Below are positions 34,149 to 51,725 of a DNA stretch of 64,000 bases, in pieces. Under the pieces are notes generated by a model, which saw only the letters and a list, made by a program, of their open reading frames with translations, made no database searches and was not told the origin of the DNA. The position numbers and the translations under genes are program-made. Within the stretch, counting starts at the first letter, position 1; the number at the start of each line of letters is the position of its first letter. The stretch is from Minisyncoccota bacterium (GTDB taxonomy: Bacteria; Patescibacteriota; Minisyncoccia; JAHISW01; Tagabacteraceae), in NCBI GenBank assembly GCA_028711505.1, contig JAQTSC010000001.1, positions 168,604-232,603 on the forward strand. The letters are read 5' to 3'.

Positions 34149-35579
34149 CTAAACTCTTTTAGCGGTTCGCAAAGGGATGTCGGCAACAGTTTTTTTGCCT
34201 AAAATTCCGGCAATTTCCAAAAGATATTTCCCGTGCCCGAAAACTTTAAGAAACCATCTCGGGTTTGTTCTCAATATGGCCTCAAAAGTGTTGAAAACCA
34301 CGCGGGGATTGGTATAAAAACGCTTTGCCGCTTCTTTGCACTTTCTCTGAACCAATTCTTCTGGCATCGGCTGAAATTTCCCTTCTTTTTGCGCGAGCCA
34401 TATGTCGGAACCGATAAGCACGGTCAGAACATAAAATCCGCAAAACGTCGGCTTTATTTTCAAAGCAAATTTTATAGTCTCTTCCATTGTTTCTTCGGTG
34501 TCTCCGGGAAGGCCAAAAATAAATTCCACGCTGTTCAAGATACCCGATTTTTTCAATTCTTTCACCAAATCGGCCAAAGCTTGGGGCTGTTCCGGACTTC
34601 TGTTTACGTTTTTCAAAATCTCTTTGGATGCGGACTGCAAACCGATTGTAATTGAAGAACACCCCGCTTTTTTCATCAAAGGCAAAATTTCTTTGCGGCT
34701 TTTTAAAAAGCTGAACGGATGCAATATACAGCGCCACTTCAAATCATAATTTCTTTCAATAAGTTTTTGGCAGAATTCTCTTGCCCAATCATCGTTAAGC
34801 CATGACCAGATATCGTCCTGAAACATAAGGTACTTAACGCCTTTTTCCTTCACGAGATAATCAATTTCTTCCAAAACGCTTTCAACGGAACGGCTTCGGT
34901 AAACGCCTCCCCATATTTTATGAGAAACGCAATAACTGCATTTAAAAGGACAGCCGCGGGAAGCCATTATTGAAGTATAAGGAGTCCTCATGTCAAAAAC
35001 GTGATAATCGTAAAAATTATTCAAATCGAATTTGTCCCATGCCGGCATCGGCAATTCATCAAGATTTTTTACAAGTTCCCTTTCCGGAGTATATTTTATT
35101 TCGCCGCGTTCTTTGTAAGCGATTCCTTTTATCTGAGGCAAATTGATTTTCCCGCGGCAATATTCAATCATTTCCACAATAGTTTTTTCTCCTTCATTAA
35201 GACAAAAAACATCCACGCCGGCGTTCAAATAACTTTCACAATCAAACATGTCGGGGCCGCCGGCAAAAATTTTTAACTTGGGAAATTTTTCCCTGGTTGC
35301 CCGCAAAAATTCAAACATATGGTCTTTCATCGCGGCGGAGCCGTAAAAACCCACGAAAAGAGGGGAAACTTCGGCAATATGAGAATTAAGCGATTCTTTG
35401 GTATAAGGAGTAATGGTAAAATCAAGTATTTCTGAATCAACGCCCTGTTGACGCAAAACCGAAACCAAATAAGCGAAACCTATTTGAGGCTCCCTCTTTA
35501 TGTCGTAATCTCTTTTGCCGGCGAGAGCGAAACTCATGTCGGGTTGTCCGACGTAAACAAAGAGGCATTTTTCCTGCAT
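34149..35579 (-). CDS. B12-binding-domain radical SAM protein
   Basis: N-terminal Rossmann-like B12-binding region, then RGCPFKCSYCVSH. Confidence 0.8.
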   Translation of the reverse strand: MQEKCLFVYVGQPDMSFALAGKRDYDIKREPQIGFAYLVSVLRQQGVDSEILDFTITPYTKESLNSHIAEVSPLFVGFYGSAAMKDHMFEFLRATREKFPKLKIFAGGPDMFDCESYLNAGVDVFCLNEGEKTIVEMIEYCRGKINLPQIKGIAYKERGEIKYTPERELVKNLDELPMPAWDKFDLNNFYDYHVFDMRTPYTSIMASRGCPFKCSYCVSHKIWGGVYRSRSVESVLEEIDYLVKEKGVKYLMFQDDIWSWLNDDWAREFCQKLIERNYDLKWRCILHPFSFLKSRKEILPLMKKAGCSSITIGLQSASKEILKNVNRSPEQPQALADLVKELKKSGILNSVEFIFGLPGDTEETMEETIKFALKIKPTFCGFYVLTVLIGSDIWLAQKEGKFQPMPEELVQRKCKEAAKRFYTNPRVVFNTFEAILRTNPRWFLKVFGHGKYLLEIAGILGKKTVADIPLRTAKRV

Positions 35580-35791: not shown

Positions 35792-36100
35792 TTATTTGAA
35801 CAAAGAAATTGTTTTCTCGGCCTCATCCAAGAGATTCTTAAAATCAGCCGGCCCGCTGTAGCCATTTCTAACATTAAATAAAGGTTTAAGCCCCAGCTCC
35901 TGTATCAGAAAAAACAAAGCGGCGCGGGCAGGTGTTGTCAGTTCGGAAGGTTGAGGTATACCAAATAAAAAATCTCTTCTTTGTTCCCGGGCTGCCGCTT
36001 TTTCAGGTGAACAGGTAAAGATACCATTTTTTGCTTCCAGTTCTTTAAGGTTTTTTATAACCTTTTCGCATATTGCGATATCGGGGATTTTCATAAACAA
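35792..36100 (-). CDS. Hypothetical protein
   Basis: 102 aa ORF upstream of the terminator. Confidence 0.45.
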   Translation of the reverse strand: MFMKIPDIAICEKVIKNLKELEAKNGIFTCSPEKAAAREQRRDFLFGIPQPSELTTPARAALFFLIQELGLKPLFNVRNGYSGPADFKNLLDEAEKTISLFK

Positions 36101-36416
36101 CCTCCTTTTTCAATCCAAAATTTCTTTATCAAAAAAAACCGCCAGTTTTTATCTATTTAATCTATAACAAACTATATTAATTCTGTCAACTCCCGAATTA
36201 AAACCCTCGCAAACTTTTGAAATCATTTTGCCAAATCTGATACACAAATCCAAAAAACGGACAGAATTTTTGGCGGCGGATATCCAACTTGATTTATCCA
36301 ATCACGAATATACATTCCCACGCGTTCAATATGGTGATGTCTCAAAGAAGAGGCGCCCGCGAAATAAAGCCGTAACCGCACCTGCATTAGCAGACAAAGT
36401 CATTGTATTAAAGATT

Positions 36417-36464
36417 GGCATAAAAAAGAGCCCTCGGCGTTGCGAAAAAATCGCGCCGAAGGCT
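36417..36464 (-). terminator. Rho-independent terminator of the GC-rich gene
   Basis: GAGCCTTCGGCGCG...CGCCGAGGGCTC followed on the minus strand by TTTTTTAT. Confidence 0.5.
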
Positions 36465-36503
36465 CAAGGGTTAAAAAGGGGTAAACTCTCAAAATTACAA
36501 GGT

Positions 36504-37370
36504 TCAGAGCCTCCGAGACGCACCCACGCCAACGCCGTAGCCGCGGTCGCCGTCCCAGCCGCCGACGCGGAGGCCGTCCTCGCCGAAGCCGCCGACACAC
36601 GAGACGCCGCCAACGCTGCCAGCAGCGACCTTATCGGTCTTCACAATGCGCTCCGTGCAGGCTGCCCACCGCGATGAATTAGGACGGTTACCCGTCTTGC
36701 GGAAGACGAGGATGTCCTTCGTCGTTTCGGCGATGGTCGTCGGCACTTCGTACCCTTCGGGAAGCATCGCCACCTGCTCTTCGGGCTTCTTGCTCGTGGA
36801 ATCGGGAACGATGTCCTTGAGCATGAGGTACCACCTGAGTTGCATAGTTGCCACATCGGTGTGCGGCTGGCCTACGTGCCACGGGTCGTTGTTGAAATAA
36901 AATTTCGGCTGTTCCGTTGCAGGGTGCAGTTCAAGCCACTTCGCTACCGTAAGCGGAGCACCGTTGATGCGGGAAAGACCCAGGAATGCGAAATGTGTGT
37001 CCTTCACTAGCTTACCCTTGTTGAAGGGACAGGGACTGTTGAGGACGTCTTCGCCCCACGGAAACTTCCCGGCTTCACGGAGCTGTTTCTTGGTGAACTT
37101 GGCGTCGTAGTAGCTCATCCAGTCGGCATCGTCGAAGATGTTCCGACCCAGAACCACCCGAGCCAACCGTGACCCGATGGAACCGACGAGACCCTTGCGC
37201 ATCATCGCTTGCGCGATGCGGCAGGCGTACTCGTTGTCTGTACGGAAGAGATCGAAGAGGTCGCAAGGATTGCCTCCCTGCTTGGTGATTGCCCTTTCAA
37301 GAGAAGCCACACTCTCCTCGAACCCACCCTTTGTCATTGTCCAGAGACCGCTTGTCTGTCTTGTGCTCAT
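36504..37370 (-). CDS. Hypothetical protein encoded in a GC-rich foreign-looking cassette
   Basis: Strong RBS GGAGGTG 6 nt before ATG. G+C is visibly much higher than in flanking DNA. The Gly/Val-rich C-terminal tail may be an artefact of the GC-rich repeats. Confidence 0.55.
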   Translation of the reverse strand: MSTRQTSGLWTMTKGGFEESVASLERAITKQGGNPCDLFDLFRTDNEYACRIAQAMMRKGLVGSIGSRLARVVLGRNIFDDADWMSYYDAKFTKKQLREAGKFPWGEDVLNSPCPFNKGKLVKDTHFAFLGLSRINGAPLTVAKWLELHPATEQPKFYFNNDPWHVGQPHTDVATMQLRWYLMLKDIVPDSTSKKPEEQVAMLPEGYEVPTTIAETTKDILVFRKTGNRPNSSRWAACTERIVKTDKVAAGSVGGVSCVGGFGEDGLRVGGWDGDRGYGVGVGASRRL

Positions 37371-37520
37371 AGCACACCTCCATTTTTTGATTTGTTCTCC
37401 ATATCCTTCAGAGATTTTAGAGAACGGGTTACCCTTTGCCGCAGGGTGACGGTCTCATCTCTCCTATGAGACGAGCGTTTTAGGAATCAAGATTTTGACA
37501 CCCAAAACGCCCATCTCATA
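37371..37520 (-). promoter_or_regulatory. Highly structured 5' leader (nested long inverted repeats) of the GC-rich gene
   Basis: Imperfect ~22-bp stem CTATGAGATGGGCGTTTTGGG / CCTAAAACGCTCGTCTCATAG, plus GGAGAGA...TCTCT with an inner ACCCT-GCGGCAA-AGGGT hairpin. Confidence 0.35.
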
Positions 37521-37630
37521 GACTGTCTGAATCTATTTTATTCTCATTTTCAAAGGATATCTCATCACAGCAATATATTTTAGGAAAGTCAAGCCAAAGA
37601 AAAAAGTGTCGCTATAAAAACAACAACCCG

Positions 37631-37846
37631 CTTGCGGGAGATCAAAGCGACATTTACAAAGCCGCTGGCATTGCCGCGCACGAGTTGGCTTACTTTTGTA
37701 AACAAATATACGAAGTTGCCGAATCAGATGACAGGCGCATGTTGTTCTCCCAGATTTTTACGAACCTTGTCCAAAATCGAAGTGGAATAAAAAAACACCA
37801 GCTTTCGTTGATGTTTATCCTTCTTGGCTCGCTTGGAAGGATATGA
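37631..37846 (+). pseudogene. Relic C-terminal fragment of a large serine recombinase
   Basis: Reads ...DQSDIYKAAGIAAHELAYFCKQIYEVAESDDRRMLFSQIFTNLVQNRSGI. This aligns with DEHQAAGIAVHELAFRSKEIYEVADDVDMKRLLLSQLFTNLLQNG in the intact recombinase at 50148..51725. No catalytic N-terminal domain is present. Confidence 0.55.
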
Positions 37847-38095
37847 TACGAACGCTGAAATGGGAAGAGATTTTCCCTTATCCCACAGTATCTTTACAGC
37901 AGATAAGGCAGTTGTTAGCTATCGTTCAATAAAATTGTATCACTTATAATAACAATTTAATAGTTTATTAAGCCAGGAGAAGAGGCACGATGTCTCTTCT
38001 TTTTGGTTTTAGGGTGGTGGTAGTTTCCCAGTGCCATTTTATTTTTTTGAGGGGGAAGCCCTGGGGTAATTTGTCTTTTTTGTCCGAAAACCTGT

Positions 38096-38170
38096 TGTAT
38101 GTACCAGTACGTACCATACCAGTACATACTAACGGCACATTATTTGCACATAGCCACTTCTACCACGTAC
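38096..38170. repeat. GTAC/ACGTAC-containing short direct repeats (iteron-like)
   Basis: gtaccagtacgtaccataccagtacatac ... ccacgtacac. A similar ACGTAC cluster occurs at 47083-47155. Confidence 0.3.
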
Positions 38171-38314
38171 ACACCCTGTCATCGTTTGAGACATTAACTT
38201 GTTTATGCTTGGAATAACAGATGATAGCAGGGTTATAGTGTGTTAAACAAAAAGGGTGTAACCATCTTTTTACCCGTCTCAATAGGTTAAAAATACCACT
38301 ACCTATAAGGGTAG

Positions 38315-38815
38315 CTATTTTACCTCTCTGCCCTTGGTGTGATTTTGGAACAAGATATAACCGATACTAAACACAATTAAAGAGGCGCCAAGTGGTGGGA
38401 ATAGATACAACACAAGGTTTAAGATGTTATACAAAAAAGATATTATAGCGTTCAATAGTTCGACAACCTTGGGAACAACCCAAAAGTACATAATTAGAAT
38501 CAAGAAGCCCCATATAAGCCCCTTTATACCTCGATAAAGCTGCCTGTCTCCCAAGCCTCTTACTATCAGATGGTATAAGAATTGATAAAATCTCACCCAA
38601 TATAAAAATGCGCCAAATGTTACAAATACCAAGGCGCTATACAATACTCGGTTAAAAAAACTCGGCGCCTCAATAGGGTTTATCGTAGCCCACTGAAATG
38701 TCTTACCAAGCCAGAAATGCCAGAGTAAAATTGCCAAAGCAAAAACGACAGCAAATGCCGCCGATGATGCAATTTCTTTTTTATTTTTTGCTATAACTTT
38801 TTTATACCAGCTCAT
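38315..38815 (-). CDS. 4-TM membrane protein, last gene of the hsdR-hsdMS-AAA_13 operon
   Basis: 166 aa with four hydrophobic helices. Start is 3 nt after the upstream stop. Confidence 0.55.
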   Translation of the reverse strand: MSWYKKVIAKNKKEIASSAAFAVVFALAILLWHFWLGKTFQWATINPIEAPSFFNRVLYSALVFVTFGAFLYWVRFYQFLYHLIVRGLGDRQLYRGIKGLIWGFLILIMYFWVVPKVVELLNAIISFLYNILNLVLYLFPPLGASLIVFSIGYILFQNHTKGREVK

Positions 38816-38818
38816 ATT

Positions 38819-41128
38819 TTATGGCGTCGTCGTTGTCGCGGGCGTGCAAAGAGCTTTTATGTCATCGTAGTGCTCTTTGTCTGCTAACTCAATAAACTTC
38901 AATACGTTTTTAGCAATAGATTTTCCTTCAAGCATAGCTGCGGAAATTGGTCTTGAAAAATCTTGTCCGTGAGAATACTCGTGTAAAAACTTAACTACAA
39001 AATCACCCGTGCCTTTTTTGAGATGATTTGGGTCTGCAACGAATCTATTAAGTACGATACTGGTAAAATCCTCGGTTGTTCTACAAGACCATTTGAAGCC
39101 AGAAAAAAACTCTAAAACCTTCCTTGCTATATTCGCCACGAGTGGTTCGTCCAATGGTCTTATATTATTTGCAAACTGATAAAGTCGGCAAAAGAGATAT
39201 TGATATTCGCTTTTATATTCTTTAAGAAGGTCTGGGAGATTTTCAACTTTAACTTCTTGGGTAGTGTTTTCTTTATCAAGGGAAATAAGATACATCCACG
39301 AATCATTTTCTAATTGCTTGCTTAAAAACCAATCGCGCATTAAATTAAAAAACTCGAAATTGTGTGTGAGTACAATCAGCTGCCCGACATTTTTTAGTTG
39401 TCTTTTTATCAAGCCCGCCGTGCGGAATAAAAAAATACTATCCTGACTATCAACTGGGTCATCAACGACAATCAAACAATTCTCTTTATTACACCCGTCT
39501 TCTTCAAGTTTTATTAAAAAGTAGACAAGAGCAAGCACGCCTTCTTCTCCTTCGCTCAAATGCTTGGCATCTTTATTTCTTCGTTTCAAAACATAGCTTG
39601 TATCACCATCCTCCGACTCTGTAACTTCAAGGTAGATATGGGATTCACCAAAAAACTCTTTTAGTATGGCATTGATTTTATCAACTGCATCTGTTGCATT
39701 ATGTAAAGATGCTTTTTTGCTTTGGATTTTAATAATCAAATCACCACGCTCAACTTTTAATTTAGCTATCTCTGCCGCAATACGCTCATTTTCTTTTTTG
39801 TTTTGGAAATACTGCTTATCAGATAAAATCGAGGCTATTATATGTAATTCAATTTTTTCTGCTGCGTTTTTAACTTCTTCTGATATTGTTGCTACTTTTT
39901 TGTTGTGTTCAGTTATTATACTTTTAATTTTTTCCAAACTTACATTTGCCTTGTCTATGGCGTCTTTTGGGTATATTACGGCGCTATGCTTTTTAGTGCA
40001 GTCGTGTAGATTGTCTTTTTTATTTTTAAGACAATCCGTGAGAGAGCCAATTACTTCTTTTATTTTTTTGACTTGTTCTTCGAGCTCCTTCTTCGCTGTT
40101 GTATATTCTTTTGCTGGTTCGGGGAACAAGGCACTTGATTCCAACTCTAACGCGATGCCGTTATAATCATCGTTTTCAAGAGAAATTATTGCATCCTCAA
40201 TTTGCTTCTTTGTTTTTTGAAGTTCGTCGGTAAAAAAACTTCCAAGACGAGTTAAGGTTTCTCCTGGCAAACTACTTTTGCAGAATTGACATTCGGTCAA
40301 AGCCCTATCTTTGTGTAGTTTATATCCAGTCTCAACCCAATCTCGTAAATCCTTATCATCTTTAAGCTCCTTGATTTCTTGTACGTTAATTGTGGTACAA
40401 AGTAGACCATTGGCACTACCAAAAAGCTCGGAAAAATCTGGAATCGTTGCTACGTTTAATTTAATTTCTTTCTTCTCATTTTTTATAATATCTTTCTTTG
40501 CGTCCACGTCTGCCTGGTCTGCAATAATCAATGAGGCGATACTACTTTCGCTTACTACTCCACTTTCAATACGCTTATCGACTTTATTTTTGTTATAGCT
40601 TCTACCATAGTATGTATCATTCGCCAGCGGTGTGTTGGTAAAGTTTTGAGGAACTTGTCTTCCTGCCTCCGTGAGAATAGCGTCAAGTTTAGGTAATTTT
40701 CCTTGCGCTTCCTCTAACTCCTCAATGCTTTTCTGCTTTGCCTTATAATCAATATCTAACGCTTCAATTTCTTTTTTGGTCTCAACATTTTCTTTTCCAA
40801 GTATTACGATTTTCTTCGCTTGCGATTCTTCGAACAGTAGGTTTTCTTTTATAAAATCTTCATTAAAAACCCTTACATTGAGTTCGTGATTCGCTATATT
40901 GTTCTGTTTTATTGTGCCAGCGTCTGTTTGAACTGTGAACTCAACAGAGGTTAAGTCTGGGATGTGTATTGCTTTTCTTTCCAAAAAATTAAAAAGTCTG
41001 GAAATGGTAGTCTTTCCAGAACCGTTCCAACCGTAAATAAGGTTGTGCTTTTTGAGGTCATCGCCAAGCCAATTGAAGGAATCAAAAGCGTCAACATTTT
41101 TTATTTCTTTGACTTTTTTTACTATCAT
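38819..41128 (-). CDS. AAA_13-family ABC-type ATPase with coiled-coil insertion and CxxC hook (PrrC/RloC-like; putative anticodon-nuclease-type abortive-infection protein)
   Basis: Walker A GWNGSGKTT near the N-terminus, ~300-aa coiled-coil containing CQFCKS, Walker B-like LIVVDDPVDSQD, C-terminal His-containing region. Directly downstream of the type I RM genes. Confidence 0.5.
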   Translation of the reverse strand: MIVKKVKEIKNVDAFDSFNWLGDDLKKHNLIYGWNGSGKTTISRLFNFLERKAIHIPDLTSVEFTVQTDAGTIKQNNIANHELNVRVFNEDFIKENLLFEESQAKKIVILGKENVETKKEIEALDIDYKAKQKSIEELEEAQGKLPKLDAILTEAGRQVPQNFTNTPLANDTYYGRSYNKNKVDKRIESGVVSESSIASLIIADQADVDAKKDIIKNEKKEIKLNVATIPDFSELFGSANGLLCTTINVQEIKELKDDKDLRDWVETGYKLHKDRALTECQFCKSSLPGETLTRLGSFFTDELQKTKKQIEDAIISLENDDYNGIALELESSALFPEPAKEYTTAKKELEEQVKKIKEVIGSLTDCLKNKKDNLHDCTKKHSAVIYPKDAIDKANVSLEKIKSIITEHNKKVATISEEVKNAAEKIELHIIASILSDKQYFQNKKENERIAAEIAKLKVERGDLIIKIQSKKASLHNATDAVDKINAILKEFFGESHIYLEVTESEDGDTSYVLKRRNKDAKHLSEGEEGVLALVYFLIKLEEDGCNKENCLIVVDDPVDSQDSIFLFRTAGLIKRQLKNVGQLIVLTHNFEFFNLMRDWFLSKQLENDSWMYLISLDKENTTQEVKVENLPDLLKEYKSEYQYLFCRLYQFANNIRPLDEPLVANIARKVLEFFSGFKWSCRTTEDFTSIVLNRFVADPNHLKKGTGDFVVKFLHEYSHGQDFSRPISAAMLEGKSIAKNVLKFIELADKEHYDDIKALCTPATTTTP

Positions 41129-41133
41129 AATGT

Positions 41134-43575
41134 TTATTCACCCCAAACTTCGGCGATTTTAGCCTTAATCTTTTCTTCGTATATTTCAATCATCCTTTTG
41201 GCTGATTCGACGTGTTTCGATTCATTTTCAATTTCAGAGACAATCTTTGTCTGTTCTTCAATCGGTGGTAGAAGTATTGAATAGTTTGAAACAAAATTGT
41301 TTGTTAATCTCTGCTGTCCAGCAGAGCCTGTCATATTATTTTTTCCCATCTTCAAAAACCTATCTTCCGCAATATAGTAATACAATAATTCGGGCAATAT
41401 CTTTTCTGTGGAGCGTAAAACAAAGAACTCTGTCGAACCAAATCCAATACCATTGGTGAGATTTTTTGCTATACCCGCTTTTCCGTTTTCAAAACACGGA
41501 GTAATTTTTGCAAGGAGAACATCATTATCCCTAAAATAAGTATAACTTTTTATCACGTCTTTGAGCGGTTTTGTTTCTTTCGGATAGAAAAACTTTTGAT
41601 GCTCTTCGATGTCTGCCATCGGCACAAATGATACTTGGGTAGTCCCGCTTATTTTTTTGACTTCTGATTTTGCTGGGTTTATTTCACAAACTTCTTTTAA
41701 GGAAACTTTTTTCCAATTTGGATTAACTTTTATTGATGATTTTGAGTGTTCAATAATTTGCTTTGCTCCATCTATAACTTTTTGATAGTTGTTAATTTCG
41801 CCGACTATTTCTCTTTGTACCTCAATCGGAGGTAGAGGGATTTTAATTTTTGAGTATTCAGAAATCCAATATCTTTTATGTTTATGACTTACAGAACCTA
41901 TCTTCTGCATTACATAAAACAAAAATCCTATATCTGCCACATTTTCCTTTGCGTGCAATATCTTCATCGCAGATGATTTAACCTTAAAAGGAAAATCAAC
42001 GAACTTTATCGCAGTAGTAAAATCATCAAAAATAATAACGGGCAATTTTTCTTTGAAGATACCGTCTTTTTCGTTGGTGTGTCCTAAAATAAAAGTTTTT
42101 CCAGCAGTTAATACTGGTGTTGTGTAGCTGTCATCATAATCAACAGAACGAACAATATACTTTGTGGGTTGTTCATAATCCAATATTTCACCCAGACTAA
42201 CCATTTGCCATTTAGTATTATTGTTACCAACCACGGCTCTATAATGGTCTCCTGACAGGTCGTAATTTTCGTTTTCAGCAATCTTTGTTTTAAGAGCTGT
42301 CCAAGCAAATAAACTACCTTTCTTCAATAGCGGATTTTTCTTTCCCGTTGTTATTGCATTTCGCTGTGCTTGTAATACTTCAATGGCGTGGGGCAAATCA
42401 TTTCGGTCAACTGGTCTACGTTGGGCGCCAAGGTCAAATCCATCGTTAAGTACTTTTATAAACAGAACTTCATTTGATTGTTTTGAAAGTTGATTGTCAA
42501 AAAATAAAATACTGGTTCTTACGCCAGAATATGGATTGAAAACTCCCGAAGGTAAAGAAACGACAGCGTACAAACCATCCTCAACAAGTAGTTTTCTTAA
42601 TTGTTTATAGGCTCCTGCTACTTGAAAAATAATAGCCTCTGGCACGATGATACCAGCACGTCCCTTATTATTGAGATGCTCCATAATATAATCTACGAAA
42701 AGCACTTCGGCGCGGTTAGCTTGTGCCATAAAGCGCTTGTGTGGGCGTATTCCGCCTTTGGGTGTCATAAAGGGTGGATTTGCCATCATTACGTCAAAGC
42801 GCTCGTCCCACTTCTCTTCGCTTGTTAGCGTGTCATATTCGTGGATATTTGGACTTGGGAAGCCGTGTAGATACAGATTTACAAGCGATAACTTCACCAT
42901 ATCGGGTGAAATATCATAGCCAGTAAGATTGCCCATTAAGCGTTTCTTTTCATCTGGGGTAAGCGGTTTATTCTTATTTGATTTAAGAATATGTTTGTAT
43001 GCAGAAATAAGAAATCCTGCCGTGCCACAAGCGGGGTCAAGTATTGTTTCGTCTTTCTTTGGGTCAACAACTTCAACGATAAAATCAATAATATGTCGCG
43101 GCGTTCTGAACTGTCCTGCGTCGCCCTGAGAGCCAAGGATTGAAAGTAAATACTCAAACGCATCACCAAGATTTTCACTGTGGTCGTAATTAAAAAAGTT
43201 TATATCTTTCAAAAATAGATTGAGAGTTTCTGGGTCGCGATATGGTAAAAAAGCATCTTTGAAAACATCACGAAAGAGTTGTGGAAGATGTGGATTTTTC
43301 GACATCTTTGTAATAGCTTCCACATAAAGATTCAAACGCTCCTGTCCGCCAAGTTTAGCATCCATCATTTTGCCCCAAGCATATTTTTCAAATCCATTCG
43401 TAAAAAACTGCGCCTTGCCCTTCGGTAAAGATGCAGCTCGCTTATCCATATCATCCATAAACTTATAGATAAGCGCTGTGGTGATTTGTTCCACTTGGGC
43501 TTTCGGGTCTGGGACTTTACCAACTAAAATATCCCGCGCCGAATCAATTTTCTTTTTTATATCTGTTGTTAGCAT
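41134..43575 (-). CDS. hsdMS: Type I restriction-modification N6-adenine methyltransferase fused to specificity subunit (HsdM-HsdS)
   Basis: HsdM N-terminus (QVEQITTALIYKFMDDMD), motif I LDPACGTAGFL, motif IV NPPF. About 370 C-terminal residues carry two TRD-like halves with conserved HsdS-type spacer helices. Confidence 0.8.
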   Translation of the reverse strand: MLTTDIKKKIDSARDILVGKVPDPKAQVEQITTALIYKFMDDMDKRAASLPKGKAQFFTNGFEKYAWGKMMDAKLGGQERLNLYVEAITKMSKNPHLPQLFRDVFKDAFLPYRDPETLNLFLKDINFFNYDHSENLGDAFEYLLSILGSQGDAGQFRTPRHIIDFIVEVVDPKKDETILDPACGTAGFLISAYKHILKSNKNKPLTPDEKKRLMGNLTGYDISPDMVKLSLVNLYLHGFPSPNIHEYDTLTSEEKWDERFDVMMANPPFMTPKGGIRPHKRFMAQANRAEVLFVDYIMEHLNNKGRAGIIVPEAIIFQVAGAYKQLRKLLVEDGLYAVVSLPSGVFNPYSGVRTSILFFDNQLSKQSNEVLFIKVLNDGFDLGAQRRPVDRNDLPHAIEVLQAQRNAITTGKKNPLLKKGSLFAWTALKTKIAENENYDLSGDHYRAVVGNNNTKWQMVSLGEILDYEQPTKYIVRSVDYDDSYTTPVLTAGKTFILGHTNEKDGIFKEKLPVIIFDDFTTAIKFVDFPFKVKSSAMKILHAKENVADIGFLFYVMQKIGSVSHKHKRYWISEYSKIKIPLPPIEVQREIVGEINNYQKVIDGAKQIIEHSKSSIKVNPNWKKVSLKEVCEINPAKSEVKKISGTTQVSFVPMADIEEHQKFFYPKETKPLKDVIKSYTYFRDNDVLLAKITPCFENGKAGIAKNLTNGIGFGSTEFFVLRSTEKILPELLYYYIAEDRFLKMGKNNMTGSAGQQRLTNNFVSNYSILLPPIEEQTKIVSEIENESKHVESAKRMIEIYEEKIKAKIAEVWGE

Positions 43576-43577
43576 AA

Positions 43578-46094
43578 TTACATATAGGCGTTAAGCGAAA
43601 CATAATCCTTCACATATTCTGGCACTTTCTCAATCCAACCATTTAAGGCTTCAAGGTCTGCAAAAGTTAGTTTTGGATTGGTGGCGAGCCGCGCATATTC
43701 ACCCTTTTCGATAATGTCTCGTATTTCATTATCGGTTATGTATGCCTTCAAGTAATTTTTAATCGGCATTACGAATTGATTTTCTGGCTTATTGATAGCA
43801 ACGAACTTCTCAAACTCTCCCTCCAATAATTCGTCTTTTGATTTGAAGTTAGTGATACCACCGAAGATTTTTTCTATAAACTCGCGCAAGCTGATGCGTC
43901 GGTCAGACTTCACTGATTTACGTAATTTGTCCAGATTGAAGAAATCTTCTGGCTTATCAAAAATCTTGTCTTTTACATAATCTTCAATCGTCGCCAAATC
44001 TCCTTCATCATATTTTTGTTTAATAAAGGAGTCTTCTTTTATTGCTGCCTCAAACTTTTCGAATAGCTTGCGGTCAATCTTCATCCCTTCAACACCCACC
44101 GCTTTTTCAGTAAATGTTTTTAATGGGTCTGGCTGCGTAATTGAAATCTCGTCAATGTTTATTCCGCCTTCTCCACTTTCACCGCCAGTGCCAGTTTTAG
44201 CAGGTAAATGTAAAACCTCATCGTAATCATACTTTTCTTCAAAGTATTCGCAGTTAGCAAAGAAATCAAAGAGCTTAAACTTTTCTTTTGATACTTTTGC
44301 TTCCTGTATTTTGCCACCTTCTTTTTCTTGGTGGGTAAATGTGAACTTGCGCGTGCCACGTCCCTTAATCTGAATAAAATCAGTCGGAGAAAATATCGGG
44401 CGCATCAAGGCAACGTTGAGTATATCTTGGCAATCATAACCAGTTGTCATCATCCCAACTGTTACACAAAGACGCGTCTTGCTGGAATGATAGCCGTCCA
44501 AAAACTTTGTATAGCCATTAAGATTGTTGTTAGCAAAACTCACCGTAAAATCTTGGGCACTTGGAATATTTGAAGTAACCTGTACGGCAAAATCAGAATT
44601 ATATTTGCCTGGATAAAGTTGGTCGGCAAACTGATTAAGTATTTGTGTAACTTTGGATGCGTGTTTTTGACTAACACAAAAAACAATACCCTTACCAATT
44701 TCTCCCGTTATTGGGTCTTTAAGAGCATTTTCAAAAAATGTTTTGCAAAAAATCTGATTGGTTTTATCGGAGAAGAACTTGCGTTCAAAATCAGTATGGA
44801 AAAAAGTCTGTTCTTCTTCCTTACCGTTTTCATCTTCAACCATCATCGCATAGCCCTTTTCAGAAAGAAGCTCGGTTGTTATTTCGGTACGCGCATCAGC
44901 AACAACTGGGTTTATTAAATAGCCTTCCTTAACGCCATCAAGCAAGGTGTATCGAAATGTTGGCTCGCCAGTTTCGCAGCCAAAAGTTTTGTAGGTATCA
45001 AAAAGTTGGCGGCGCTCCCAAGCGCGCGGGTCTTTGGTGTTGAGTTTTTCAGGGTTGATTCCTTTGAGATAATTTTTAGGAGTTGCAGTAAGTCCGAGTT
45101 TATAGCCAACAAAATACTCAAATACTGCACGACTATTGCCGCCGATTGAACGATGGGCTTCATCGGAAATTATGAGGTCAAAATCCGTAGGAGAGAATAA
45201 TTTTTGATACTTATTATTAAAGGAAAGACTTTGCACAGTGGAAACAACAATCTCTGCCTTGCGCCAGTCATCTTTGTTTTCTTTATAAACAACGGTTGTA
45301 TAATCCTTTGAAAGCCACTTCTTGAAGTTCTTGGCTGCCTGGTCTTCCAATTCCAAACGGTCAACAAGAAATAAAATACGCTTGGCATTTCCGCTTTTTA
45401 GGAAAAGTTTAATGATAGCCGCTGATACAAGAGTTTTACCCGTGCCTGTCGCCATCTCAAACAAATAACGGTCATTGCCTTTGGCGGCGGATTCTTGAAG
45501 AGATTTGATGGCGTGTAATTGATATGGGCGCAAAAACTTTAATCCTTCCGTGTCAATAAGATTCTGTTGCTGCTCTTCGTTCTCCCAGCGTGGGTCGCTC
45601 TTATAATCTGTCTTCTGGGTAAGTACTATGTAATCATTTTCTACATCCTCATCGGCAAGACGCTTGGAATTAGGTTTGAATTGTTCAAAATGTTGAAGTG
45701 ATTGTGGTGTTGGAAATTGGACAATGATTGTAGGGTTGCCGCGCTCCAAGTCCCAGAAATAGTGAAGGTTACCGTTAGAAAGAATAACAAAACGTACATT
45801 TAGGGACTGGGCATAGCTGCGCGCTTGTTCTTTGCCGTCAAGCGGGTCTTTGTCTTCGGACTTCGCTTCAAGCACTACATACGGGAATCCTTTTTCATCA
45901 AGTAATAAAAAATCAACAAAACCATTTTTTGTTTTTTCGAAATCACCACCAAAAGCATCGACTGCTTTTTTAGTAAGTTTAGTGTTAAGTTCAAGGGCGA
46001 TGTTAGCCTTGCCTTTTTCATCATCAAAAAATCTCCAACCAGACTTTTGGAGGAGGTCGTTTATTTTTATTCGTGATTTAGCTTCTTTTTGCAT
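43578..46094 (-). CDS. hsdR: Type I restriction enzyme R subunit (PD-(D/E)xK nuclease + SF2 helicase)
   Basis: N-terminal VDFLLLDEKGFPYVVLEAKS (D...EAK), Walker A MATGTGKT, DEAH (LIISDEAHRS), motif VI QIKGRGTR. Confidence 0.8.
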   Translation of the reverse strand: MQKEAKSRIKINDLLQKSGWRFFDDEKGKANIALELNTKLTKKAVDAFGGDFEKTKNGFVDFLLLDEKGFPYVVLEAKSEDKDPLDGKEQARSYAQSLNVRFVILSNGNLHYFWDLERGNPTIIVQFPTPQSLQHFEQFKPNSKRLADEDVENDYIVLTQKTDYKSDPRWENEEQQQNLIDTEGLKFLRPYQLHAIKSLQESAAKGNDRYLFEMATGTGKTLVSAAIIKLFLKSGNAKRILFLVDRLELEDQAAKNFKKWLSKDYTTVVYKENKDDWRKAEIVVSTVQSLSFNNKYQKLFSPTDFDLIISDEAHRSIGGNSRAVFEYFVGYKLGLTATPKNYLKGINPEKLNTKDPRAWERRQLFDTYKTFGCETGEPTFRYTLLDGVKEGYLINPVVADARTEITTELLSEKGYAMMVEDENGKEEEQTFFHTDFERKFFSDKTNQIFCKTFFENALKDPITGEIGKGIVFCVSQKHASKVTQILNQFADQLYPGKYNSDFAVQVTSNIPSAQDFTVSFANNNLNGYTKFLDGYHSSKTRLCVTVGMMTTGYDCQDILNVALMRPIFSPTDFIQIKGRGTRKFTFTHQEKEGGKIQEAKVSKEKFKLFDFFANCEYFEEKYDYDEVLHLPAKTGTGGESGEGGINIDEISITQPDPLKTFTEKAVGVEGMKIDRKLFEKFEAAIKEDSFIKQKYDEGDLATIEDYVKDKIFDKPEDFFNLDKLRKSVKSDRRISLREFIEKIFGGITNFKSKDELLEGEFEKFVAINKPENQFVMPIKNYLKAYITDNEIRDIIEKGEYARLATNPKLTFADLEALNGWIEKVPEYVKDYVSLNAYM

Positions 46095-46129
46095 AATACA
46101 TTTTCATTTTCATATTTACAGAGAAACGG

Positions 46130-46318
46130 TTATCTCTTTTTCTTTTTTGCCTTAAAACTGTTCTCGACGAACTCTTCAAGGTCTTCTTTTCTAAAACGCC
46201 AACGTCCAATTTTTGCAGCTTTAATTTTACCGCTATGCAGATAGCGGAATAGTGTGCGCTTGCCAATATCAAGAAACTTGGCGGCTTCTTCTATATTCAA
46301 AAACTTCTCTTGTTCCAT
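46130..46318 (-). CDS. Excisionase/MerR-type HTH DNA-binding protein
   Basis: 62 aa; LNIEEAAKFLDIGKRTLFRYLHSGKIKAAKIGRWRFRKEDLEEF. Confidence 0.65.
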   Translation of the reverse strand: MEQEKFLNIEEAAKFLDIGKRTLFRYLHSGKIKAAKIGRWRFRKEDLEEFVENSFKAKKKKR

Positions 46319-46392
46319 ACAAACATATTGTATCCCTTTTTGCTCGAAATGGCAATTATTGGCATTTCTTGATATAATGGCTTTAAGACACT

Positions 46393-47067
46393 ATGGAAAT
46401 GAAAATGACAACAAAAGAAAAGGATATTTTATTTGCTCAAATTATCAATGAGCACTTTTTAACGCAAAAAAATAATACGGTCTATATACCAGCAAGACAT
46501 CTCGAAGCGAAGGGTTTTGATATTTCTGATAGTAATAATGCCTTGTGGCGCCTAAAAGATAATGGGATTATTAAACAATATAAACATTGCTGGGGCTTTT
46601 GGGAGATTAAAGGCAGTAAGAAGGTTTTTGTTATTACGAGCGAAGAGGAACCCAAAACAGATGATGACGTTGAGGTTTATCAGATTAACGTTATTCCTGG
46701 ACACCTTGTGCAAGCAACAAAAAGCCAAATAGAAAAACAAGAAGAAAAAAATGTTACTCTCTACCTCAACAAAAATGGTGATTTGTACAGAGAGCCGAAA
46801 AGCAATTTTTGTTATCCGATGAGCGGTAAGGGTGTTCCATTAAAAATACTCAAATACTTCGTAGATAACCCAAATATTGATTATGAACAAAATACAATAA
46901 ACGCCGCCGACTCTATCGGTATAAAAGCAGACCAATTACGTAAAGAAATAAACAAGATGAGAAAACCCATCAAAGACAGACTAAAACTGAATAGTGGGCT
47001 AATTGAAGCAAGAAGGAATAGCGGTTATAGGCTTAATCCAAATATAGAAATAATACACAAAAACTAA
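46393..47067 (+). CDS. Hypothetical protein (possible element regulator or replication factor)
   Basis: Divergent from the Xis-like gene. TTGATATAAT promoter-like sequence lies upstream. A terminator follows. Confidence 0.5.
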   Translation: MEMKMTTKEKDILFAQIINEHFLTQKNNTVYIPARHLEAKGFDISDSNNALWRLKDNGIIKQYKHCWGFWEIKGSKKVFVITSEEEPKTDDDVEVYQINVIPGHLVQATKSQIEKQEEKNVTLYLNKNGDLYREPKSNFCYPMSGKGVPLKILKYFVDNPNIDYEQNTINAADSIGIKADQLRKEINKMRKPIKDRLKLNSGLIEARRNSGYRLNPNIEIIHKN

Positions 47068-47106
47068 ATACCCTCACGTACCCCATACGTACTGTTAATT
47101 ACTTTT

Positions 47107-47140
47107 AAGACGACTGCTAAAACAGTCGTCTTTTTGTATC
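47107..47140 (+). terminator. Rho-independent terminator
   Basis: AAGACGACTG-ctaaaa-CAGTCGTCTT followed by TTTGTATC. Confidence 0.55.
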
Positions 47141-47449
47141 TCAAAAAGTACGTGCAGATTATGTTAAGCGATAACACGTCGTTGATATTCTGTAAGTATA
47201 TGAAAAATGCAGATACAAAAATTGCAATTAGCGACTTGGGACTTGCGAGCTTACTGGTAACGCTCAACTTTAATTTGGTCGATATGGAGCGCGTGAACGA
47301 AAAGCGCATCAACTTTTTATTTGCGCCAGCAGAAGGAATAGAGCAAGTCATCAGTGATTTTTGGGCAGGCATTAAAATCTCTGTTTCTACACAGAGCCTT
47401 TTTAATAATCAAAAGATGCTCAAAAACCGCTTGTACGCTTTCAAATAAT

Positions 47450-47614
47450 ATGGAGCTTACTGCGGAACAATTACAAATGCTTCGAAAGCCTTTTGAAAAA
47501 GCAGGGGCATTTGTTGGTCGTTCCGAAGAAGAAATTAAAAAACTTCTTGAAGGCATTGCAGATATTTACGTAACCCTTGCAGAAATAAACTTACTTTCAA
47601 AAAATAAAAAATAA
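47450..47614 (+). CDS. Small hypothetical protein (54 aa) immediately upstream of the primase
   Basis: ATG at 47450. It is 4 nt before the Prim-Pol start. Confidence 0.3.
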   Translation: MELTAEQLQMLRKPFEKAGAFVGRSEEEIKKLLEGIADIYVTLAEINLLSKNKK

Positions 47615-47618
47615 AACT

Positions 47619-49352
47619 ATGGAAAATGAAAATCAAATCTTAAAAGCTGCGTTGCGATATTGCGATATGGGATTCTCTATAATTCCAATCGGGGAAAATA
47701 AACGTCCGCTTCTTGCCGAATGGAAACCGTATCAAGAAGTGTGCGCAACAAAGGAACAAGTAGAAAAATGGTTTGAACAATTCCCGCAAGCGAATATAGG
47801 AATCATAACGGGCAAAGTGTCCAATATTGTTGTCATAGATGTTGATGATAAAGATGCAGACATATCAGGGCTAATACCAACAGCTATTGCACAAACTGGT
47901 AGAGGCTTCCACTATTATTATTCACATCCTGGCTTTCCTGTTCATTGCGGCATATTGCGTACCAAGATTGATATTAAGGGAGATGGCGGTTATGTAATTG
48001 CTCCGCCCTCATTGCACGCATCTGGACGTCATTATGAATGGGTTTATCATCCCGATGATGTTGGGTTTGCTGATTTACCGCAATGGGTTTTTAGAGAAAA
48101 CGGAAAACAAAAAATCAATCAAATAGAAAATAATCCTCAAACTGAAAATAAAGTATACGAAGGACATCGAAATGATAGTGCTACGAGATTTGCTGGAAAG
48201 CTATTGCACGCACTACCACGCGAAGACTGGGAGTTTGGATGGTCTGTAATACAAAAATGGAATCAAGAGCGATGTGTGCCGCCGCTTCCAGAAAGTGAGC
48301 TGCGAAAAACTTTTGATAGTATTTCTGGACGTGAAAACAAAAGACAAGATGGAAAGGGCGCTACCGAATGGGAAATAAAAACTATGCAACTTTCGGAACT
48401 TGTTAAAATGGATTTTCCAAATCCACAATGGCTCGTAGATAGATTGATTCCGCACGAGGCTGTTACCATCATCTCTGGTACGCCAGCATCTTATAAAACT
48501 TTCCTTACTCTGGACATTGCATTAAAGGTAGCAAGCGGAGAAAAAGTTTTCGGTAATTTCCAGGCTACCCAAAGTCCAGTTTTAATTATTGATGAAGAAA
48601 ATAATCCACGCGTATTACAAGAACGAGTCAAATTACTTTCACAGAATCCCGACTTGCCAATTTTTATAGCATCAAGAAACGGTTTTCAACTTAACGACGA
48701 CAATGTTCAAAAAATTGTTGATTATGCCAAAAGTAAAAATGTACAACTAATTATATTTGACTCTTTTATTTGCATACACCAAGCCGATGAAAATGTGGCA
48801 AGTGAAATGCGTAATGTGATGAAACACTTGAAAGAGATTGCCAGCCACGGCATCGCGGTTATTGTTATTCATCATCACCGCAAAAGAGGAAATGCGGAAA
48901 AAGGAAATGCCTCGCAGGATATGCGCGGCTCTTCCGATATTCTGGCGCAGGTTGATTGTCATTTGGCGATTGATAGAAAAAAGAGCGGAGACGCCAGCGT
49001 TACTATCCAGCAGGTCAAGTTAAGAGAAGCCAAAGAGATGGAGCCATTTGTTGTTTGCCTTCATAGTAATGGCGAGAGTGGATATTTTGAATATGTTGGG
49101 CAAGCCAAAGAAAAAAATGATAAGCAAGGAGATGTTAAAGCAGCTGTAATTAAAATACTTGGCGCAACAGACAAGCCACTAAATAAGGCAGAGGTATGGA
49201 GACTTATCAAACAGTCTGGTGTTGAGGTGGGACAGTCAACATACAAAACAGCCTTTAAGGAATTGGTTGAGACTGGCGAGATACTCACACAGAAAGGGGC
49301 TAAAAATACCATACTTTGCAGTCTGAATAAGTTAGAGGGTGGTGATGGTTAA
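47619..49352 (+). CDS. Bifunctional DNA primase/polymerase (Prim-Pol N-terminal domain) fused to a RecA-like/AAA_25 helicase-type ATPase domain
   Basis: Prim-Pol motifs GFSIIPIG..KRPL, VVIDVD, GRGFHYYY, DIKGDGGYVIAPPSLH. C-terminal Walker A GTPASYKT and Walker B LIIFDSF. Confidence 0.8.
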   Translation: MENENQILKAALRYCDMGFSIIPIGENKRPLLAEWKPYQEVCATKEQVEKWFEQFPQANIGIITGKVSNIVVIDVDDKDADISGLIPTAIAQTGRGFHYYYSHPGFPVHCGILRTKIDIKGDGGYVIAPPSLHASGRHYEWVYHPDDVGFADLPQWVFRENGKQKINQIENNPQTENKVYEGHRNDSATRFAGKLLHALPREDWEFGWSVIQKWNQERCVPPLPESELRKTFDSISGRENKRQDGKGATEWEIKTMQLSELVKMDFPNPQWLVDRLIPHEAVTIISGTPASYKTFLTLDIALKVASGEKVFGNFQATQSPVLIIDEENNPRVLQERVKLLSQNPDLPIFIASRNGFQLNDDNVQKIVDYAKSKNVQLIIFDSFICIHQADENVASEMRNVMKHLKEIASHGIAVIVIHHHRKRGNAEKGNASQDMRGSSDILAQVDCHLAIDRKKSGDASVTIQQVKLREAKEMEPFVVCLHSNGESGYFEYVGQAKEKNDKQGDVKAAVIKILGATDKPLNKAEVWRLIKQSGVEVGQSTYKTAFKELVETGEILTQKGAKNTILCSLNKLEGGDG

Positions 49353-50147: not shown

Positions 50148-51725
50148 ATGACCAATAACATTTCATCAAAAATAAAAGCAATGGTTTTCTGCCGCGTCTC
50201 TTCCAAAGAACAAGAAGACACGGGCTACTCGTTGGACTCGCAAGAAAAACTTTTGACCGAGTATGCGAAAAAATACGATTACAAAATTGTAAAAGTCTAC
50301 CGCATATCTGAATCAGCCAGCGGCAAACAGGTGCGCAAAACTTTTATTGAGGCTTTGCAATTTGCCACAAAAAATAAAATAGAAATTATTTTGTGTGAAA
50401 AAATTGACCGCCTTACTCGCAACTTAAAAGATGCCGCCACAATAGATGACTGGGTAAAGGAAGACACGGCGCGCGCAGTTCATTTCGTCAAAGAAAACTT
50501 TATCTTGAACCAACAGACGAAGGCTCACGATAATTTTATTTGGGATATGAAAGTTGCTGTTGCCAGATTTTATACCAACAATCTTTCCGAAGAAGTTAAG
50601 AAAGGACAAATAGAAAAAATAGCCCAAGGTTGGCTACCAACAAAACCGCCGCTCGGATATAAAACTATCGGCGACAAAGGACACAAGACGCACGTCATTG
50701 ATGAAGAAGTGGCGCCTTTTATGCGCAAGATGTTTGAATGGTACGCTACGGGCAATTATTCAGTTGCGCGCGTGGAAAAGGAATTGTTTGAGGCTGGGCT
50801 GCGCACACGTTCGGGTAAAAAGCTGGGAATGAGTCGAATCCATATGATGCTACAAGACCCGTTCTATTACGGCAAGATGCGCTGGATGGGAAAAGTATTT
50901 GCTGGTATGCACAAGCCGCTTATAGAAAAAGATGTGTTTGATAAAGTACAAGGATTACTGCGCCGAAAAACAAACTCACCTCATCTTCGAAAACACAACC
51001 CACTTTTTAAGAGCAAAATCTTCTGCGAAAATTGCGGCGGGATGATGACTTGGTATGAGAAGAAAGGACACTGGTATGGGCACTGTAACAACCACGGAGA
51101 GTACGCCAGGTGCACTAAAAAGACCTGTATGAGGCAGGAAGCCATAGAAGAACAGATAACCACCGTCTTTGACGTCATAGCCCCTCAAAATGAGGAGGTG
51201 CTTGCAGCGATAGTTCAAATCCTTAAAGACAAACACAAGGATATGACCGCCAACCGCGAGAATGATATTAAAAGGTATAATTCGCTCCTGGCTAATGTCC
51301 AGACACAGAAAGACAGACTCTACGAAGCCAAGCTAAATAAGGAGGTGCCAGTTGAGTACGTAGAGCGCAAGCTGGCTGAATTAACCACCGAAGCAGAGAC
51401 TTTGGAAAATACCCTGGTTTCTGTGAGAGACAAGAGCGATGAGCACCAAGCGGCAGGCATTGCCGTACACGAGCTGGCGTTTCGTTCAAAGGAGATTTAC
51501 GAGGTAGCTGATGACGTTGATATGAAGAGATTGCTTTTGTCTCAATTATTTACGAACTTGCTACAAAATGGGCTTGAAATAAAGAAAGAATACACATCCG
51601 CCGCTAAATTATTGATAGAATGGGTGCCAAAGCTAAACAAGGATTACGAACTGCAAAAAAGTGAGCAGATAAAAGGAAAAGACGTCGTTTTGTCGACGTC
51701 TTCTCCTGTCTGGCTCCGGTGGTAG
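50148..51725 (+). CDS. Large serine recombinase (resolvase catalytic domain + recombinase domain + Zn ribbon + coiled-coil)
   Basis: Catalytic AMVFCRVSSKEQ (Ser nucleophile), IDRLTRN, Cys cluster CENCGG...CNNHGEYARCTKKTC. The last 5 codons overlap the tRNA-Asn 3' end. Confidence 0.85.
   Translation: MTNNISSKIKAMVFCRVSSKEQEDTGYSLDSQEKLLTEYAKKYDYKIVKVYRISESASGKQVRKTFIEALQFATKNKIEIILCEKIDRLTRNLKDAATIDDWVKEDTARAVHFVKENFILNQQTKAHDNFIWDMKVAVARFYTNNLSEEVKKGQIEKIAQGWLPTKPPLGYKTIGDKGHKTHVIDEEVAPFMRKMFEWYATGNYSVARVEKELFEAGLRTRSGKKLGMSRIHMMLQDPFYYGKMRWMGKVFAGMHKPLIEKDVFDKVQGLLRRKTNSPHLRKHNPLFKSKIFCENCGGMMTWYEKKGHWYGHCNNHGEYARCTKKTCMRQEAIEEQITTVFDVIAPQNEEVLAAIVQILKDKHKDMTANRENDIKRYNSLLANVQTQKDRLYEAKLNKEVPVEYVERKLAELTTEAETLENTLVSVRDKSDEHQAAGIAVHELAFRSKEIYEVADDVDMKRLLLSQLFTNLLQNGLEIKKEYTSAAKLLIEWVPKLNKDYELQKSEQIKGKDVVLSTSSPVWLRW

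Follow-up and report, generated by a model that had tools for sequence, protein, structure and literature searches.

A 64,000-nucleotide (nt) stretch of a Minisyncoccota genome (contig JAQTSC010000001.1, positions 168,604 to 232,603), hereafter the window, encodes a type I restriction-modification (R-M) system, a protein of the RloC anticodon-nuclease family and a small membrane protein that we call TM4. These genes, together with that of a small DNA-binding protein in front of them, probably form a five-gene layered-defense operon carried on a serine-recombinase element, with TM4 perhaps acting as a membrane module independent of the other products. The operon and its putative signals are as follows (positions are those of the window; aa, amino acids).

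46327-46355, minus strand: sigma-70-like promoter candidate (TTGCCA-17-TACAAT), just 5' of the HTH_17 start codon; consensus match only
46130-46318, minus strand: HTH_17 gene, 62 aa, excisionase/MerR-like DNA-binding protein (Pfam HTH_17, 1.4e-17), first gene of the operon and candidate regulator
43578-46094, minus strand: hsdR, 838 aa, type I R subunit: PD-ExK nuclease at the N terminus, SF2 motor
41134-43575, minus strand: hsdMS, 813 aa, N6-adenine methyltransferase in frame with a specificity subunit of two target recognition domains (TRDs)
38819-41128, minus strand: rloC-family gene, 769 aa, Rad50-like ABC ATPase with CQFC in a helical insert and a C-terminal all-alpha, HEPN-type anticodon-nuclease domain (predicted)
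38315-38815, minus strand: TM4, 166 aa, last gene of the operon; its multi-pass membrane product belongs to an undescribed family
38298-38315, minus strand: terminator-like hairpin, GCTACCCTTATAGGTAGT plus a T-rich tail; it shares one position with TM4, the final base of the stop codon; consensus scan only

From hsdR through hsdMS and rloC to TM4, the stop-to-start gaps are 2, 5 and 3 nt, and the HTH_17 gene lies 35 nt upstream of hsdR. An earlier note on this DNA had described a four-gene operon of co-directional genes with junctions of 3 to 6 nt. The four minus-strand open reading frames (ORFs) are indeed present and the junction lengths were essentially right; what the note overlooked is the 62-aa HTH_17 gene, the promoter-like site and the hairpin. 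Since the HTH_17 gene and the promoter-like site precede the four ORFs and the terminator-like hairpin follows them, the array HTH_17 - hsdR - hsdMS - rloC - TM4 is most simply read as a five-gene operon. The total of sigma-70-like sites across the region is not above shuffle expectation; the position of the candidate fits the start of an operon. An Rfam scan of positions 36000-47700 gave no match at E<0.1.

The third of these four ORFs carries the marks by which RloC was defined. Davidov and Kaufmann described RloC as a protein of 658-897 aa that shares its ABC ATPase motifs with PrrC, carries a CX2C in the middle of a helical insert and has a C-proximal Arg-X3-Glu-X36-52-His in which a Ser often precedes the His (PMC2610378). 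The window protein, at 769 aa, falls within that size range and has the Walker A (G33WNGSGKT), signature (L524SEGE), Walker B/D-loop (D556D557) and linchpin (T588H589) motifs. Long helices spanning approximately residues 110-495 split its ATPase head, with C280QFC283 near the midpoint of the insert, and the anticodon-nuclease triad reads R669-X3-E673-X46-S719-H720. In an alignment of 27 homologs that extends to 25% identity, G33-K39, C280, C283, LSEGE (524-528), DD (556-557), H589, R669, E673 and S719-H720 are invariant. The protein matches Pfam AAA_13 over residues 22-723 (2.8e-115) and the PADLOC PDC-S06 model PDLC04894 over residues 1-760, against profile positions 1-737 of 740 (E=1.2e-140); many of its homologs bear the Joint Genome Institute (JGI) label "wobble nucleotide-excising tRNase." Its AlphaFold2 (AF2) model (pLDDT 83.8) has an ABC head in two parts, long helices and a C-terminal domain that is entirely alpha-helical, and the best Foldseek matches of this model in the PDB are Rad50 (7zr1, E=1.7e-9) and SMC heads, in keeping with a Rad50/SbcC-like fold. 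A sequence search for solved structures of RloC or PrrC relatives returned none at E<0.01. Judged from its sequence, the 769-aa protein has every feature that defines RloC.

The earlier note had reported a 769-aa ATPase with Walker A and B motifs and a CxxC, had assigned it an RloC/PrrC architecture, and had made the likeness to RloC depend on a conserved nuclease Arg/His motif and the CxxC. Walker A, LSEGE, Walker B and C280-Q-F-C283 were all found. With its Arg/Glu/His motif conserved and its CxxC invariant, the protein can be called RloC-like. The PrrC half of the assignment falls away: the protein is twice the size of PrrC, its head is split by the helical insert, and its 13 PADLOC hits at E<0.01 include no PrrC model. 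RloC-type nucleases are known inside type I hsd loci, as the note had also held (PMC2610378). The nuclease domain of RloC and PrrC is a HEPN domain often found in R-M operons (PMC3710099), and since RloC-like ABC-HEPN proteins within such operons have already been described (PMC2610378, PMC3710099), this gene adds another case of a known type.

The first two large genes appear to encode an intact type I restriction enzyme of a fused-subunit variant. HsdR matches ResIII (1.6e-41) and HSDR_N/HSDR_N_2 in Pfam and REase_I in PADLOC (4.4e-55); in NCBIfam it comes nearest to the EcoAI/FtnUII type I R family, at 1.6e-71 but under the cutoff of that model. Its motifs include the PD-ExK residues D61..E76-A-K78, GTGKT at 217, DEAH at 311 and TATP at 336. 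HsdMS combines Pfam N6_Mtase (4.8e-53) with two Methylase_S stretches, which PADLOC resolves into MTase_I (residues 1-454) and Specificity_I (residues 455-612 and 617-797), and the HsdM part has a SAM-binding DPACGTAGF and an NPPF at 266. A separate two-TRD HsdS is missing: both TRDs are fused to the C terminus of HsdM in a single 813-aa ORF. These domain matches bear out the initial description of an R subunit followed by an in-frame M-S protein with two TRDs. The suggestion that the fusion belongs to an undescribed variant did not survive. All of the best 120 HsdMS homologs are fusions, which span about 625-1090 aa (~790-880 aa for the two-TRD forms, ~625 aa for the single-TRD forms, plus two longer ones) and come from Paceibacterota, Omnitrophota, Cyclobacteriaceae, Acidithiobacillus, Acidiferrobacter, Elusimicrobia and others. 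Such conservation of the fusion rules out an artifact of a frameshift or of assembly, and on this sample M-S fusions are widespread across many phyla rather than rare. An engineered EcoKI M-S fusion, moreover, restricts and modifies in vivo together with HsdR (PMC3510504).

To place TM4, we compared its neighborhoods in 17 distinct genomic contexts; the loci compared with the window are numbered from L001. In 9 of the 17, TM4 is preceded on its own strand by a type I R-M system, with at least three hsd architectures among them, and at least 14 unrelated families occupy the position directly upstream of TM4.

Window: RloC
L017: divergent 865-aa RloC-like protein
L001: OLD-like ATPase-Toprim protein
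L005/L014: EMARD_N/PDC-S39
L025: TPR-PIN protein
L037: 228-aa protein after SAVED and SMODS genes
L013: SEC-C protein after a LexA-like repressor
L020: S24 peptidase, LexA-like
Remaining contexts: uncharacterized proteins of 785/786, 815, 1260/1261, 315, 253 and 221 aa

The DNA of these loci is mosaic. Relative to L017, L011 and L001, the window is ~79% identical over hsdR and the 5' part of hsdMS; identity is lost over the TRDs, is regained, in L017 and L011, over the final ~90 nt of hsdMS, is absent over the cargo gene, and restarts exactly at the TM4 ATG (38815), from which it runs to ~38344. In L022, which has an unrelated type I system, the DNA match to the window consists of TM4 only. 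Conversely, the closest RloC homolog, encoded in L033 (74% identity, same HTH_17-hsdR-hsdMS operon), is followed by a soluble 115-aa protein in place of TM4, and the RloC homologs of L034 and L035 (56% and 50% identity) also lack TM4. Within the TM4 family, identities cluster by locus group and not by cargo, so that divergence does not track the upstream gene: L011 and L022, which share their cargo, have TM4 proteins that are 75% identical, while L011 and L017, with different cargo, are at 79%. The varied upstream genes, the DNA mosaic, the RloC homologs without TM4 and the grouping of identities by locus together argue against a specific partnership of RloC and TM4. As far as these comparisons reach, TM4 is a modular 3' gene, and the hsdMS-to-TM4 interval is a slot whose content is swapped and is not specific to RloC. 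The note's proposal that TM4 is a partner of the RloC-like ATPase is thus not supported. Its expectation that TM4 would be syntenic with AAA_13 genes elsewhere holds for one other context (L017, L018 and L021), where the AAA_13 protein is of a different subfamily; beside the closest RloC homologs TM4 is absent.

TM4 itself has no match in Pfam, PADLOC, NCBIfam or PHROGs, and a fold search found no relative. It falls outside the known membrane defense families represented in PADLOC and PHROGs (KwaA, RexB-like, Sie, and the transmembrane effectors of CBASS and retrons). We found 53 close homologs, and a profile search of 1.84 billion representatives gave 132 clusters, nearly all of standalone proteins of 155-200 aa. 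Source labels, where given, are mostly Paceibacterota or Saccharibacteria, along with a few metagenome-assembled genomes labeled "Gammaproteobacteria," a label that is unverified. Scans with patterns from the TM4 alignment, which are narrow, located 6 genome loci and 12 metagenome loci. The ratio of nonsynonymous to synonymous divergence (dN/dS) is 0.045 against L001; dS is saturated in most other pairs, and dN ranges over all from 0.12 to 0.63. TM4 is under strong purifying selection. Its AF2 model is all-helical (pLDDT 86.6) with 4-5 hydrophobic segments, which agrees with the four-helix membrane protein first described here; positive charge is found at the N terminus and in one loop, and the invariant residues include K98, W102 and a polar stripe formed by N122, S126 and N130. 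Of 15 TM4-bearing loci that were compared, 6 have a serine recombinase at most 11 kb away from TM4, as does one additional context. Because serine recombinases, ParB-methylases and type IV secretion system (T4SS) genes recur close to it, TM4 is tied to mobile elements. To judge from these searches and alignments, TM4 is a real, conserved and uncharacterized membrane family, new, linked to mobile elements and centered on the Candidate Phyla Radiation (CPR).

From what is known of the two enzyme families, the type I enzyme would methylate self DNA and would translocate and cut unmodified incoming DNA. RloC would provide a second line of defense, in which the Rad50-like ATPase and zinc-hook region restrain the C-terminal HEPN anticodon nuclease; DNA damage or the failure of restriction would license the nuclease, tRNA anticodon loops would be cut, and translation would stop. 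We have high confidence in these functions, type I restriction and a latent RloC anticodon nuclease, on the strength of that family knowledge. The HTH_17 protein probably regulates the operon, a plausible role by analogy only with RptR in Escherichia coli type I islands (PMC12255303). TM4 may have a membrane role of its own, in superinfection or entry exclusion or as an abortive-infection-type layer of the mobile element; our confidence that it acts independently there, and is not an anchor, effector or immunity factor of RloC, is low.

Several points weigh against this layered-defense operon with an independent TM4. Published RloCs respond to DNA breaks and mostly are not linked to R-M systems. 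The CxxC of the window protein sits within a beta-hairpin of a multi-helix region in the middle of the insert, as read from the DSSP string of the AF2 model only. The purified EcoKI M-S fusion required extra M in vitro (PMC3510504), and a single M-S polypeptide with two TRDs would call for a second M. R-M function, tRNA cleavage and any phenotype of TM4 are all things that we infer, and neither the sequence nor the fold of TM4 points to exclusion over any other membrane role. Lastly, TM4 starts -1 to +12 nt from the upstream stop codon in most loci, and two combinations, the 785/786-aa protein with TM4 and the 1260-aa protein with TM4, each recur in two different contexts. Because of this tight spacing and these recurrent pairs, a functional link between cargo and TM4 stays alive.

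Such a link could take several forms. That TM4 is dedicated to RloC, as its membrane effector, anchor or immunity factor, and so marks a new RloC variant, seems very improbable to us. The 3-nt gap between rloC and TM4 may reflect translational coupling, and a second, divergent AAA_13/PDC-S06 protein does precede TM4 in L017, L018 and L021; this has to be set against RloC loci at 74% (L033) and 50-56% identity (L034, L035) that do without TM4, at least 12 non-AAA_13 families upstream of TM4, TM4 divergence that is independent of the upstream neighbor, and the fact that RloC has a nuclease effector of its own. TM4 might instead serve many defense proteins of CPR mobile elements as a generic membrane sensor or effector, in the manner of RexB with RexA or KwaA with KwaB, and could alert the upstream protein to membrane perturbation or DNA injection, or depolarize the cell on the command of that protein. 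The close spacing just described would suit this, as would the cargo-TM4 pairs shared between backbones (the 785/786-aa protein with two type I families, the 1260/1261-aa protein in a LexA-like and in an HsdR-YgjP context), the polar N122, S126 and N130 on one face of a hydrophobic helix, the invariant K98 and W102, and the size and topology of RexB and KwaA, which resemble those of TM4. Yet TM4 matches none of the PADLOC models, KwaA included, and no known fold; one small protein would need 14 unrelated partners; TM4 does not co-diverge with cargo; in some loci it lies 80-215 nt from the upstream gene or follows a divergently oriented one; and short gaps are general in compact CPR genomes, all junctions in the window operon being 2-5 nt. 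We regard this generic role as unlikely.

Also doubtful is the possibility that TM4 belongs to the backbone of an integrative or conjugative element and has no direct role in defense, serving, for example, conjugative entry exclusion or maintenance, with defense cargo inserting 5' of it and TM4 and the hsd genes acting as homology arms for cassette exchange. The recurrence near TM4 of serine recombinases, ParB-methylases, terminase-like and T4SS genes is consistent with a backbone gene, the element in the window encodes a TrbC pilin, a PrimPol protein and a serine recombinase, DNA homology is limited to the TM4 ORF and the hsd genes that flank the swapped cargo, and the TM4 phylogeny goes by locus group and not by cargo. 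However, the genes 3' of TM4 are not conserved across contexts, so TM4 does not lie in a stable backbone block; it occurs with three type I families as well as with type II and CBASS-like loci; and it mostly ends the defense operon itself, being followed in the window by the terminator-like hairpin. As for the 769-aa protein, it could be a DNA-directed SMC/Rad50-like defense ATPase, similar to Lamassu LmuB or to PDC-S06, with a noncatalytic C-terminal domain. Weak PADLOC hits to LmuB (2.2e-13) and mad3 and a Foldseek hit to Lamassu LmuACB (9hqu) point that way, and PDC-S06 is only a candidate system for which we found no published mechanism. These SMC-like matches are confined to the head and coiled coil, whereas Arg-X3-Glu-X46-Ser-His is invariant in the 27 homologs down to 25% identity, and mutating the equivalent triad residues abolishes the activity of RloC and PrrC (PMC2610378, PMC3710099); we therefore consider a noncatalytic C terminus highly unlikely. 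With some diffidence, and as an unlikely extension of the layered-defense operon that we favor, TM4 may found a CPR-specific family of universal membrane modules, translationally coupled 3' of whichever defense gene is carried and acting as a shared sensor or executioner (RexB- or KwaA-like) or as an injection- or entry-exclusion layer beside RloC, OLD, PIN, CBASS-like and as yet uncharacterized proteins.

The slot in front of TM4 holds several proteins that deserve description. In L017 (6398-8995), and also in L018 and L021, a divergent RloC-like subfamily of 865 aa occupies the RloC slot of a ~79%-identical hsdR-hsdMS operon; it has an extra ~100 aa at the N terminus, a CVYC, an LSEGE and an R-x3-E near the C terminus, it matches other PDC-S06 models, and phmmer with the window RloC missed it. 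Three further occupants of the slot, each with TM4 on one side and a type I system or LexA-like repressor on the other, match nothing in Pfam or PADLOC and are candidate new defense genes: one of 785/786 aa (L011 7635-9992, L022 7637-9997; 77% identity between backbones), one of 1260/1261 aa (L015 6208-9993, L024 2201-5983; 67% identity between backbones) and one of 815 aa (L008 3546-5993). A CBASS-like set (SAVED, SMODS cyclase and the 228-aa protein) is found at L037 3711-7003, where a TM4 homolog follows 15 nt later on an element that carries a serine recombinase and TraC/TraG-like ATPases. In three contexts with no adjacent type I system, the TM4-ending gene set begins with a LexA-like S24 peptidase/repressor (L013 8739-9344, L015 5284-5949, L020 8372-9001), which hints at SOS-type control of these cassettes.

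Small proteins also recur at the edges of the slot. Between hsdMS and the cargo, L033 (6549-6995) and L011 (7186-7638) encode a conserved protein of 148-150 aa, absent from the window, in which a PD-(D/E)xK-like motif was recognized by eye (GVDIKV...WLIECKG); it has no Pfam hit. Just 3' of TM4, a small soluble family of 61-69 aa is present in L011 (~10476-10661), L017 (~9452-9661) and L025 (~5571-5777). The 115-aa protein found in TM4's place in L033 (9305-9652) is a member of this family; we ruled out that it is a truncated TM4, given that it is soluble and has no hidden Markov model hit.

Around the operon, the window contains genes expected of a mobile element.

47619-49352: PrimPol-AAA_25 primase-helicase gene, upstream of the operon
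50148-51725, plus strand: large serine recombinase gene, 525 aa, upstream of the operon
51711-51785, minus strand: tRNA-Asn
31779-32642: TrbC/VirB2-type T4SS pilin gene
34149-35579: B12-binding radical SAM protein gene

The 3' ends of the serine recombinase gene and of tRNA-Asn overlap by 15 nt, which suggests integration at tRNA-Asn, and the PrimPol-AAA_25 and TrbC/VirB2 pilin genes suggest a conjugative element in a CPR genome. The TM4 and RloC proteins of the window are 100% identical to proteins of a "Candidatus Pacebacteria" metagenome-assembled genome, in line with a CPR/Patescibacteria source. It is plausible that the operon belongs to an element that integrates and is probably conjugative, in a genome of the Paceibacterota (CPR). 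The earlier placement of the genes inside an integrative element is made plausible by the recombinase/tRNA-Asn overlap and by the PrimPol and pilin genes; the far boundary was not found, there being no direct repeat of the tRNA-Asn 3' end elsewhere in the window and no convincing att-like repeats. Farther 3' of TM4, a noncoding element of ~125 nt (window 37813-37945) is ~80% identical to L001 8025-8157, although the flanking genes differ. It is also present in L002-4, L012 and L023, contains GATAGCTAAC and GGATAAGGGAAAAT..TCCCATTT, and has no Rfam match; folded on both strands, it is not convincingly structured (z = -2.3 for the window copy and +0.6 for the L001 copy).

Type I restriction with an embedded RloC is textbook layered immunity, to which the window adds a CPR case on an integrative element. 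What is new is a small, strongly conserved membrane family without known relatives that caps defense operons in mobile elements of Patescibacteria, together with an hsdMS-to-TM4 interval that appears to act as a swap slot for at least 14 unrelated genes, several of them large and unannotated. The unannotated proteins of the slot are good candidates for new defense systems. Since very few defense or mobile-element functions have been described in CPR bacteria, a recurrent marker gene for their defense cargo would be a practical handle for discovery, whatever its own function proves to be. If TM4 were indeed a universal membrane module, the interval from hsdMS to TM4 would be a defined cassette-exchange slot, and the 785-, 815- and 1260-aa proteins would be new defense genes.

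Among known systems, TM4 is reminiscent of lambda RexB, Kiwa KwaA, prophage Sie proteins and TraS of the F plasmid, which are proteins of ~150-200 aa with about four transmembrane helices, borne on mobile elements beside defense genes. The similarity lies in size, helix count and setting; sequence and fold show no detectable similarity. A literature search turned up nothing relevant on membrane proteins that accompany type I systems or on the mechanism of PDC-S06. With the RloC proteins (COG4694) of Geobacillus kaustophilus and Acinetobacter baylyi, the window protein shares the size range, the ABC motifs, the CX2C helical insert, the Arg-X3-Glu-X46-(Ser)His triad and the Rad50-like head. Most described RloCs are not R-M-linked, whereas rloC of Campylobacter jejuni has the same siting in a type I hsd locus, being one of the original "restriction-linked ORFs" (PMC2610378). 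The window gene differs in lying 3' of all hsd genes, in the order R-MS-rloC, and in its location on a CPR integrative element. The PrrC/EcoprrI system follows a shared logic, a latent HEPN anticodon nuclease within a type I R-M locus that serves as a backup on restriction failure, and has the same combination of ABC ATPase and anticodon-nuclease triad. PrrC, however, has 341-416 aa and an uninterrupted ABC domain without a coiled-coil/zinc-hook insert, in contrast to the 769 aa with an insert found here, and its linkage is to type IC hsd genes, while the window R subunit is closest to the EcoAI (type IB) family. PADLOC PDC-S06, which the window RloC matches over its full length and of which other models match the L017 protein from the same slot, is a single-gene candidate label without a mechanism; the features described above indicate that the window subgroup is RloC.

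The hsdMS gene has a counterpart in the engineered EcoKI M-S fusion ("Type IMS"; Roberts et al. 2012, PMC3510504), in which, too, HsdM and HsdS form one in-frame polypeptide that is served by an HsdR of its own. The window fusion is natural, carries two TRDs and belongs to a large multi-phylum family; type ISP enzymes, by comparison, also fuse the R subunit and carry one TRD only. For the operon as a whole, the nearest parallel is the RptR island of enteropathogenic E. coli (EPEC) that contains DarTG2 (PMC12255303), likewise an operon that opens with the gene of a small DNA-binding protein and combines type I hsd genes with another defense system embedded in it. An HTH_17 gene precedes hsdR in L033 as well as in the window; its likeness to RptR is one of analogy, and the cargo of the window operon lies 3' of hsdMS rather than between hsdS and hsdR.

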